Source: a virus
Reading direction: 5' to 3' (one strand)
IMG/VR virus record: IMGVR_UViG_3300037882_002000
Coordinates: 1-59,960 of that record
Length of the DNA stretch: 59,960 nt
Part shown: positions 14,161-14,888 of the stretch, in pieces
How positions within the stretch are numbered: position 1 is the stretch's first letter
Layout of the letters: the number at the start of each line of letters is the position of its first letter
Program-made: the position numbers and the translations under genes
Notes under the pieces: generated by a model
What the model was told of the DNA's origin: nothing
Databases searched by the model: none
Seen by the model: only the letters and a program-made list of their open reading frames with translations

Positions 14161-14403
14161 TCAAGAAACATCTTTAATCTCCCTCATATTATCGTAGTTT
14201 TCTAATGTTTTAAGCCTTGTTCTAGTGATATTCTCCGCTCTGCTTTTGAAGGCCTGGAGAAAACCTTCCTCAGATAACTCCCGCCGGAATACGCCTCGAA
14301 GAAGCGCGCCAAGCTCTATATTCAGCATAGGCTTCACCATAGGATAGTCAGCTGTTTCATATATTTTAAGTGCCTCATCCCATATACTTTTACTTAGCAT
14401 CAC
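14161..14403 (-). CDS. hypothetical protein (80 aa)
   Basis: Operon-packed ORF whose start overlaps the upstream gene's stop. Confidence 0.65.
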   Translation of the reverse strand: MMLSKSIWDEALKIYETADYPMVKPMLNIELGALLRGVFRRELSEEGFLQAFKSRAENITRTRLKTLENYDNMREIKDVS

Positions 14404-14888
14404 TCACCCCTCGATCTTTTCCAACCGTTAAACCCAATCACATACACTTCACGGTACAGTCGTTGGTACCTGTCCTTGGTCAGAACCACTTCCGAAAGGT
14501 TATCCAGGAAGCGATCATTGCCATTAACGGAGCGCACCACTGCTACAGCGTGAATCTCTCCAGTGAGCCTTACCTGGGTAATGGCGAGGTCAGTCTGGCA
14601 GCCCTCAAATATCCGGCCAAGCAGATCCATCTTAAGGATGGCGTAGTCCTCACAATCACCCTTACCTAGAGCAAGGGTTTGTTGTGGTGTTTGCCAGCGA
14701 TCCTCATTATCCGGCGTGTAGCGGATGATCTTATTCACCTTTCGGTTTACATAATTCAAGGCCACATCATCCAGATTCCCACGCCCACCGCAGCGATAAA
14801 TATGCGGTGCTACATCGTGCCACTTGGTGAACATAGTGGTATCCGAGTCGTAGGAAAGAGCGGGGATGACGAGCCAGAGTGGGTTCAC
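14400..14888 (-). CDS. bacterial transglutaminase-like cysteine proteinase (BTLCP / LapG family)
   Basis: YVNRKVNKIIRYTPDNEDRWQTPQQTLALGKGDCEDYAILKMDLL...GEIHAVAVV...RFLDNL reproduces the BTLCP family pattern, including the Cys (GDCEDYA), His (HAV) and Asp (LDN) triad. Confidence 0.8.
   Translation of the reverse strand: MNPLWLVIPALSYDSDTTMFTKWHDVAPHIYRCGGRGNLDDVALNYVNRKVNKIIRYTPDNEDRWQTPQQTLALGKGDCEDYAILKMDLLGRIFEGCQTDLAITQVRLTGEIHAVAVVRSVNGNDRFLDNLSEVVLTKDRYQRLYREVYVIGFNGWKRSRGE

Follow-up and report, generated by a model that had tools for sequence, protein, structure and literature searches.

What would a relative of the adhesin-cleaving protease LapG do for a phage that carries it among its recombination genes? 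The question is raised by a 162-residue protein encoded at positions 14400-14888 of the virus record IMGVR_UViG_3300037882_002000 from IMG/VR, a stretch of 59,960 nucleotides that was analysed over its whole length and is referred to below as the window. An earlier note, made from the letters of the window without database searches, had described the product as a LapG-type periplasmic cysteine protease of the BTLCP family (bacterial transglutaminase-like cysteine proteinases). The open reading frame (ORF) and all four motifs quoted in that description are present in the 162-residue product (MNPLWLVIPALS at residues 1-12, GKGDCEDYAILK at 75-86, EIHAVAVV at 111-118 and FLDNL at 127-131). The analysis shows that the protein is a genuine and probably active BTLCP enzyme of a compact, phage-associated form. 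Within a known family it is a divergent member, and we infer its role from relatives and context. The explanation that we favour, tentatively, is a Ca2+-dependent cysteine peptidase that would cut a host envelope protein without gating by LapD.

Family, fold and active site

The protein matched the Pfam profile PF06035 (Peptidase_C93) with an E value of 2.5e-12 and a score of 47.3 bits against a gathering cut-off of 27, and lesser Pfam matches were to related transglutaminase-like families. A match above the curated cut-off and far beyond chance upholds the family assignment. A sequence search of the PDB returned LapG chains only (4u65_E, E 7.7e-6; 4fgo_A, E 3.1e-5), and the GDCED, H-A-V and L-D-x-L segments of the query align onto the catalytic Cys, His and Asp of LapG, so that the proposed triad can be placed at Cys79, His113 and Asp129. 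All three residues are invariant among 16 aligned sequences representing the closest full-length relatives; in an alignment of 86 sequences, Cys79 and His113 are invariant and Asp129 is at least 90% conserved. The calcium-binding residues of LapG, for which the earlier note had advised a check, were found as the pair Asp78 and Glu80 beside Cys79, each at least 90% conserved in both alignments. In LapG and DvhG, the Asp/Glu pair flanking the cysteine binds Ca2+, which activity needs (PMC13090378, PMC4359373), and D-x-E mutants of DvhG (D/E to A) are inactive (PMC13090378). With the triad conserved and Asp78 and Glu80 kept, the enzyme looks catalytically competent and probably binds Ca2+, as far as conserved residues can tell.

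An AlphaFold2 model computed from the 86-sequence alignment had a predicted local distance difference test (pLDDT) score of 93.6 and a predicted template-modelling score of 0.88, with low values only at residues 1-10 and the last few residues. When the model was compared with the PDB by Foldseek, the top six matches were all LapG, with template-modelling (TM) scores of 0.61-0.67 and a probability of 1.00, and it superimposed on Pseudomonas fluorescens LapG (4u65_E) with a root-mean-square deviation of 2.5 Å over 122 columns. Other transglutaminase-like cysteine proteases ranked next, and pseudomurein endoisopeptidases matched far more weakly. The phage protein is thus modelled with the transglutaminase-like (papain-like) fold of LapG, which is its closest solved structure, as first claimed. 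Because the sole BTLCP structures found in the PDB search are those of LapG, this top match indicates family membership and not LapG identity. PHROGs offered no significant family for the protein or its neighbour genes (best E for the protein 0.09), and the protein matched neither PADLOC nor known anti-defence families.

LapG orthology was examined and rejected. Against the NCBIfam equivalog model for LapG (NF045674), the protein scored 33.6 bits, far under the cut-off of 320, with model positions 66-166 of 221 aligned. Its identity to LapG (P. fluorescens Pfl01_0130, Legionella pneumophila; 4FGO/4U65) is 22-27%. The two have in common the fold, the Cys-His-Asp triad, the Ca2+-binding Asp and Glu and an N-terminal F-x-x-W element. 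Unlike LapG, the protein is phage-encoded and lacks a canonical signal peptide; its folded domain spans ~150 aa compared to ~200 aa for mature LapG (~30-40 residues fewer), and its C-terminal lobe is ~30 residues shorter. The calcium loop is 7 residues long, whereas LapG and every one of the 39 measurable cellular homologues have 12, and it is likewise shorter by 5 residues in part of the viral homologues (17 of 41 measurable). Asp60 within it is the equivalent of loop residue D111 of P. fluorescens LapG. Among the window ORFs scanned, neither LapD nor type I secretion genes nor a giant adhesin turned up, and their sole receiver domain is a stand-alone REC. The equivalog score, the shorter loop and the lack of these partners in the window therefore leave the "LapG-type" part of the earlier description unsupported. 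The family also holds functions other than that of LapG, as HvyA inhibits capsule formation (PMC4241560).

Relatives among phages and bacteria

A search of 1.84 billion representative proteins returned 1931 matches at E ≤1e-3, 41 of them at ≤1e-10, and the best match is just 43% identical, which marks the phage protein as divergent. The top matches (P0117, P0118, P0119, P0120, P0123, P0124 and others) are 150-175 aa long and aligned end to end, with a C-terminal G-W-[RK] motif common to the query and the top full-length matches. The gene for P0118 (41% identity over the full length) is part of the early/replication module on a phage contig of 43 kb and, at its start, is likewise coupled to the stop of the gene upstream of it. 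Another product of this contig (L006 19018-20462) exceeds 1582 aa and contains a RelA_SpoT domain; it may be of the polyvalent type.

At least 134 IMG/VR contigs encode BTLCP relatives, as found with one degenerate pattern. Of 78 viral loci, 34 had the compact form of ~150-175 aa, as did 56 of the 144 top representatives but none of the 80 best genome loci. Measured on longest ORFs, median lengths are 174.5 aa for the viral homologues, whose catalytic cysteine lies near residue 82, and 292.5 aa for the 80 best cellular matches, with the cysteine near residue 183. These cellular proteins are almost all from Alphaproteobacteria and match the query in the core only, at 34-42% identity. Judged from these sequences, compact BTLCPs lack the long N-terminal region of cellular BTLCPs and are common in viral contigs. 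The closest cellular relative (P0002) adjoins a gene for an AprE/HlyD-type membrane-fusion protein of type I secretion.

The earlier note had called a phage copy of such a protease unexpected. In addition to the IMG/VR contigs, fold matches in BFVD include a COG3672 protein from an uncultured Caudovirales phage and a "transglutaminase" of Caulobacter phage CcrPW, and a 145-aa copy is annotated among GenBank phages in Rhizobium phage RHph_I4 (EVC24_001). BTLCP is also reported to be the commonest auxiliary metabolic gene in river single-virus genomes, where exchange among viral clusters was inferred (PMC11283719). Taken together, these occurrences mean that a BTLCP in a phage is no surprise. 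The other phage BTLCPs (RHph_I4, CcrPW, the Caudovirales COG3672 protein and those of river viromes) are small, at 117-178 aa, often lack a signal peptide and appear to be exchanged among unrelated phages (PMC11283719), but they are only 18-34% identical to the query and differ in genome position, with the RHph_I4 copy opening its record and copies in some IMG/VR contigs belonging to lysis cassettes. Searches for close kin were otherwise negative: megablast of 12-19 kb of the window and tblastn of the BTLCP against GenBank phages gave nothing at E 1e-3, tblastn at E 5 recovered RHph_I4 as the sole family member (E 1e-2), and IMG/VR, scanned with single proteins (the BTLCP, RecT and the 129-aa product of the upstream gene), yielded no close relatives. 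No functional test of any phage BTLCP was found in the literature.

Neither the operon neighbours nor, subsequently, 58 window proteins identified a conserved neighbour gene when compared by tblastn with loci L001-L092; the sole recurring neighbour in these loci is a lysozyme near some viral BTLCPs. Some loci carry the BTLCP domain inside large ORFs (L057 2667-4538, >623 aa; L074 1087-4023, 978 aa; L085 8001-9563, 520 aa), which may encode virion or injected proteins.

Three characterized systems offer points of comparison. HvyA (Caulobacter crescentus CCNA_00166), SMc00998 and NGR_c12490 belong to the same Pfam family and have the same triad. HvyA, which was compared by description and not by sequence, is a periplasmic BTLCP of Caulobacter that blocks capsulation and can be substituted only partly by BTLCPs of other species, and its function is tied to surface polysaccharide and phage susceptibility (PMC4241560). 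It has 272 aa and a classical Sec signal and is encoded within a capsule locus, whereas the compact protein examined here is carried by a phage and has no link to polysaccharide synthesis genes. DvhG (Desulfovibrio vulgaris DVU1019) shares with the phage protein the BTLCP family, the triad and the D-C-E calcium motif (PMC13090378), but it has a different, larger domain organization, is controlled by DvhD and lies in an operon with adhesin and type I secretion genes. PeiW and PeiP of Methanobacterium phages are phage cysteine peptidases with a transglutaminase fold that act on the host envelope; they form a separate family with an archaeal cell-wall substrate and match the phage BTLCP weakly in fold (TM ~0.4, E ~1e-2).

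Gene start, operon and surrounding genome

An automatic database gene call for the BTLCP (P0001) starts at Met19 and yields 144 aa, dropping 18 residues in the stretch 14832-14888 (minus strand), part of a conserved motif among them. This start was rejected, as the homologue-conserved motif Y-[DN]-x-D-x-[ST]-x-F-x-K-W runs across Met19; the stretch around Met19 also aligns with the mature N-terminus of Legionella LapG in the PDB sequence search. The motif spanning Met19, the overlap of the GTG with the upstream stop and the GAGG sequence ahead of it (Table 1) together favor the GTG start. Since this GTG is the first possible start past an in-frame stop, the N-terminus can be no longer than MNPLWLVIPALS.

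Through the GTGA overlaps at both ends, the BTLCP is translationally coupled with both flanking genes, neither of which matched Pfam, PHROGs or PADLOC. Gene order in the minus-strand block is a 125-aa protein, a PD-(D/E)XK exonuclease, RecT, a 245-aa helix-turn-helix (HTH) protein, a 109-aa protein, the 129-aa protein, the BTLCP, the 80-aa protein and an HTH_3 regulator, and a plus-strand replication block diverges from it at 18962. Pfam matches and the ORF layout thus agree with the earlier placement of the BTLCP in one operon with RecT and the exonuclease. The GC content of the gene, 51.1%, is close to the 51.3% of the genome, which argues against a recent insertion. Within the block, the 245-aa HTH protein (15627-16364, minus strand) showed a weak match over 51 residues to PADLOC mad1 (E 5.7e-7) together with weak ParB-HTH and Crp-HTH matches, and the mad1 match probably reflects just the shared HTH motif. 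Between the 80-aa gene and the HTH_3 regulator is a 48-aa ORF (14025-14171, minus strand) whose translation includes a clear hydrophobic stretch, IYIIVLLGFALAFWYVL. Because this ORF overlaps the N-terminus of the regulator, which has a TTG start, the regulator's start may have been called wrongly, and the site may code for a small membrane protein.

Table 1. Positions of the BTLCP gene, its parts and its flanking features in the window
Feature	Position	Strand	Description and basis
BTLCP (Peptidase_C93) gene	14400..14888	-	162 aa, GTG start; ORF listing, Pfam, AlphaFold2, Foldseek
N-terminal segment MNPLWLVIPALS, residues 1-12	14853..14888	-	Uncharged hydrophobic segment; possibly a minimal signal peptide
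Shortened calcium loop YTPDNED, residues 57-63	14700..14720	-	5-residue gap relative to 4u65_E
Core matched by the Peptidase_C93 profile	14475..14762	-	Residues 43-138 = profile positions 41-135 of 162
Asp78-Cys79-Glu80	14649..14657	-	Catalytic Cys between two Ca2+-binding acidic residues; aligned to LapG GDCED
Catalytic His113	14550..14552	-	Aligned to His of 4fgo_A; invariant in relatives
Catalytic Asp129	14502..14504	-	Aligned to L-D-x-L of 4fgo_A
Shine-Dalgarno-like GAGG	14894..14897	-	5 nt 5' of the BTLCP GTG; read from the sequence
129-aa gene 5' of the BTLCP	14885..15274	-	Stop overlaps the BTLCP start (GTGA); ORF listing
80-aa gene 3' of the BTLCP	14161..14403	-	Start overlaps the BTLCP stop (GTGA); ORF listing
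Gene block containing the BTLCP	13648..18902	-	Pfam matches, ORF listing

Bases 1-39 of the window are identical to bases 59922-59960, and with these ends the window looks like a complete genome of ~59.9 kb and 51.3% GC, either circularly assembled or terminally redundant. The matrix-directed genes claimed elsewhere in it fared differently. The PL7 alginate lyase (43810-44604, plus strand; PF08787, E 1.1e-38) and the orphan receiver (43463-43876, plus strand; PF00072, E 9.1e-12), a stand-alone domain, were both recovered, and the late large ORFs had no Pfam matches that would bear out the claimed beta-helix tailspike. The receiver gene lies directly 5' of the PL7 gene inside the structural module (43463-44604, plus strand). 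The order of this pair, together with synteny of the portal and capsid genes, is kept in Logan SRR21621036_9562 (L173 9586-10711), a 59,456-bp metagenomic contig of an evidently related phage, whose PL7 is 52% identical. The sequencing run behind this contig also yielded P0119, a compact BTLCP homologue that has no signal. As to the host, the P22-like portal shares 33.6% identity with its counterparts in Pseudomonas phage KPP25 and relatives, followed by Acidovorax and Aeromonas phages, and the large terminase reaches only 22-27% identity with the listed marine podoviruses. The portal fits the pseudomonad that the earlier note had proposed, while the genome GC of 51% and the closest cellular BTLCP cores, alphaproteobacterial among the matches listed, do not; the sequences are weakly compatible with such a host at best.

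Other genes of the window were observed in passing. A 3431-aa polyvalent protein (ORF 1145-11440, plus strand) carries InPase (PF18823, E 6e-46), LPD38 (PF18857, E 2e-39) and methyltransferase domains and a weak ART-PolyVal match; such proteins are typical of phage-host conflict, and a segment of it is 27% identical in IMG/VR locus L055. A Dam-type N6-adenine methyltransferase (12474-12896, plus strand; PF05869, E 6e-28) is encoded between the lysozyme and Rz-like genes of the lysis cassette, and a tRNA-Met (CAT) (36891-36968, plus strand) between the large terminase and portal genes.

Compartment and role in infection

The earlier note had called the N-terminus weakly signal-like, and indeed it is a 10-residue uncharged hydrophobic run without Lys or Arg. 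The Pro-Ala-Leu-Ser that follows this run would suit a signal-peptidase site, but the length is well under that of a normal signal peptide. In the AlphaFold2 model, residues 1-10 have a pLDDT of 65 and no secondary structure. An export signal sequence is predicted for the BTLCP family (Ginalski 2004; PMC4241560), and every characterized member is periplasmic, namely LapG, DvhG and HvyA (PMC4241560, PMC13090378). Hydrophobic N-termini of similar shortness are found in P0117 and P0118, the two closest relatives, whose starts are fixed by stop codons upstream. Among the 15 closest relatives of full length, a Sec or lipoprotein signal is clear in at least 7; within this tight subgroup, a textbook Sec signal is present in P0126, P0129, P0142, P0149 and P0204 and a lipoprotein signal in P0120 and P0224. 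The D-C-E motif is kept in all members of the subgroup in the 16-sequence alignment, signal-less ones included. A weak run without Lys or Arg, together with close relatives that are signal-less at well-defined starts, does not bear out the attribute "periplasmic". A different route to the envelope is suggested by signal-less BTLCPs of 130-150 aa within lysis cassettes (L044 7636-9342 and L079 2681-4614 in the IMG/VR ORF listings), where the gene order is a membrane (holin-like) protein, the BTLCP, an ORF, a membrane protein and a GH24 lysozyme. A lysozyme homologue also lies within ~1 kb of the BTLCP gene in L037, L039 and L078. The cassettes suggest that some phage BTLCPs reach the envelope via the holin, like endolysins.

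The envelope peptidase that we tentatively favor would act during infection as a Ca2+-dependent cysteine endopeptidase on one specific periplasm-exposed host envelope protein, and cleavage would remodel the infected cell's surface. Most plausibly it would target either a giant adhesin secreted by a type I system, at its retention module, as for LapG, or a component of capsule or exopolysaccharide export, as for HvyA. Access to the compartment might be inefficient, via the 12-residue hydrophobic N-terminus, or be gained once the holin opens the inner membrane. Cleavage would escape gating by cyclic di-GMP (c-di-GMP), as the window encodes no LapD partner. This reading is preferred because the Ca2+ motif is retained, which favors a Ca2+-rich, extracytoplasmic site of action, because the characterized members are periplasmic and because relatives are exported. 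The PL7 polysaccharide lyase additionally points to the surface matrix of the host as a target of the phage.

Several observations weigh against this explanation. The N-terminal segment has just 12 residues, and its hydrophobic core of ~8 is interrupted by a proline, so that the signal peptide is not canonical. Two relatives with well-defined starts, P0119 and P0123, certainly have no signal: for P0119, just two codons upstream are open and the ribosome-binding site is good, and for P0123, the ribosome-binding site is strong and no alternative start would add a hydrophobic stretch. An N-terminal hydrophobic run of at least 12 residues is present in 41% of viral versus 84% of cellular homologues, which, with the signal-less relatives, means that action in the cytoplasm is a real possibility. 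Compared with LapG, the calcium loop is shorter by 5 residues, which leaves Ca2+ dependence not assured. A LapG-type DP...[T/A/P]AAG motif, looked for as a sign of a self-substrate, is absent from the window ORFs of at least 100 aa. The early expression that we infer comes from the layout of the operon only; promoter and terminator scans gave counts equal to background and thus no sign that the BTLCP has a transcription unit of its own. Lastly, with no neighbour conserved across BTLCP-bearing phages, context gives no functional clue.

The competing explanations differ mainly in compartment and substrate. Retention of LapG's own activity, with the protein exported and cutting the di-alanine site of a LapA-type adhesin without control by c-di-GMP and LapD, is a subset of the envelope-peptidase reading and is judged unlikely. 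It draws on LapG being the best structural and PDB sequence match, on the conserved triad and D-C-E Ca2+ motif and on the type I secretion membrane-fusion gene adjoining the closest cellular homologue. Moreover, LapG and DvhG, although only 33% identical, cleave each other's [T/A/P]AAG substrates (PMC13090378), so that specificity can survive strong divergence. However, the LapG top match does not discriminate, as solved BTLCP structures are essentially all LapG, and the equivalog score of 33.6 bits against 320, the shorter Ca2+ loop, the ~30-40 residues missing from the LapG mature domain and the lack of a canonical signal peptide all speak against it. BTLCPs are also not freely interchangeable, since HvyA cannot be replaced by Atu0252 or by either of two paralogues from NGR234 (PMC4241560). 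Action on polysaccharide export in the manner of HvyA, in which a periplasmic export component is inactivated and the infected cell stops building the matrix that the PL7 lyase must cut, appears quite improbable. The triad-dependent activity of HvyA blocks capsulation, and the capsule controls phage susceptibility (PMC4241560); a compact homologue is present in Caulobacter phage CcrPW, the PL7 lyase with its Pfam E value of 1.1e-38 represents an investment in polysaccharide degradation, and the best cellular core matches are alphaproteobacterial among those listed. This bias among the listed matches may nevertheless stem from the pattern scan itself, HvyA has no known substrate that could be matched, and its 272 aa with a classical signal sequence contrast with the compact phage protein.

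Two further explanations would keep the protein in the cytoplasm, permanently or until lysis. An early cytoplasmic effector, that is, a protease, deamidase or transglutaminase that would act on a cytoplasmic protein of host or phage and serve takeover, anti-defence or superinfection exclusion, like other accessory genes in lambdoid early-left operons, is somewhat unlikely, yet it is a serious rival on account of the poor signal and the signal-less relatives. In its favor, the gene is translationally coupled inside an operon with recombination genes and genes of unknown function, the N-terminus is non-canonical, truly signal-less compact relatives exist (P0119, P0123 and the 145-aa protein of RHph_I4), 59% of viral homologues have no hydrophobic N-terminus, and the 3431-aa polyvalent protein of the same phage is of a kind typical of phage-host conflict. 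Free Ca2+ is low in the bacterial cytoplasm, however, and the D-C-E Ca2+ motif is strictly kept, signal-less relatives included. Furthermore, no characterized BTLCP is cytoplasmic, many relatives of the tight subgroup have a clear Sec or lipoprotein signal, and no PADLOC or known anti-defence family was matched. The most doubtful of the explanations is a lysis-associated accessory enzyme, cytoplasmic until the holin fires and then cutting an envelope protein or an isopeptide-type link, which would aid envelope breakdown or keep progeny off debris. The signal-less BTLCPs inside lysis cassettes of several IMG/VR contigs (L044, L079) are consistent with it, as are the 1.9 kb that separate the BTLCP of the window from the lysozyme gene and the appearance of PeiW and PeiP, transglutaminase-fold phage endolysins, as weaker fold matches. 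Those matches are weak, however (E 4e-3 to 1e-2, TM ~0.4), nothing points to action on peptidoglycan, and the BTLCP is opposite in strand to the lysis cassette and within the recombination operon, a layout that predicts early and not late expression.

Returning to the favored envelope peptidase, a broader proposal that is unlikely in its entirety would extend it to the compact proteins as a group. Compact BTLCPs would be a phage-adapted lineage that has lost the N-terminal extension and often the calcium-loop insert and the Sec signal too. In this joint proposal, which is no more probable in its second part, phages would deploy them without c-di-GMP gating to strip giant adhesins from the infected cell or to shut down its capsule. 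Equally doubtful is the remainder, by which the envelope would be reached through minimal signals or holin lesions, and infected cells would leave biofilms by detaching or progeny would be left untrapped.

BTLCP genes recur in phages, with at least 134 IMG/VR contigs and the rank of top "auxiliary" gene in river viromes (PMC11283719), and the one described here is a clean and complete example, with an intact active site, a confident model, a defined operon and an apparently complete 60-kb genome. Knowledge of its substrate and compartment would reveal if a LapG-like switch serves phages in detaching or uncoating their hosts, which is relevant to biofilm dispersal and to phage therapy against matrix-embedded bacteria. 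If true, a phage-adapted compact lineage would represent a general phage strategy behind the commonest "auxiliary gene" of freshwater viromes.

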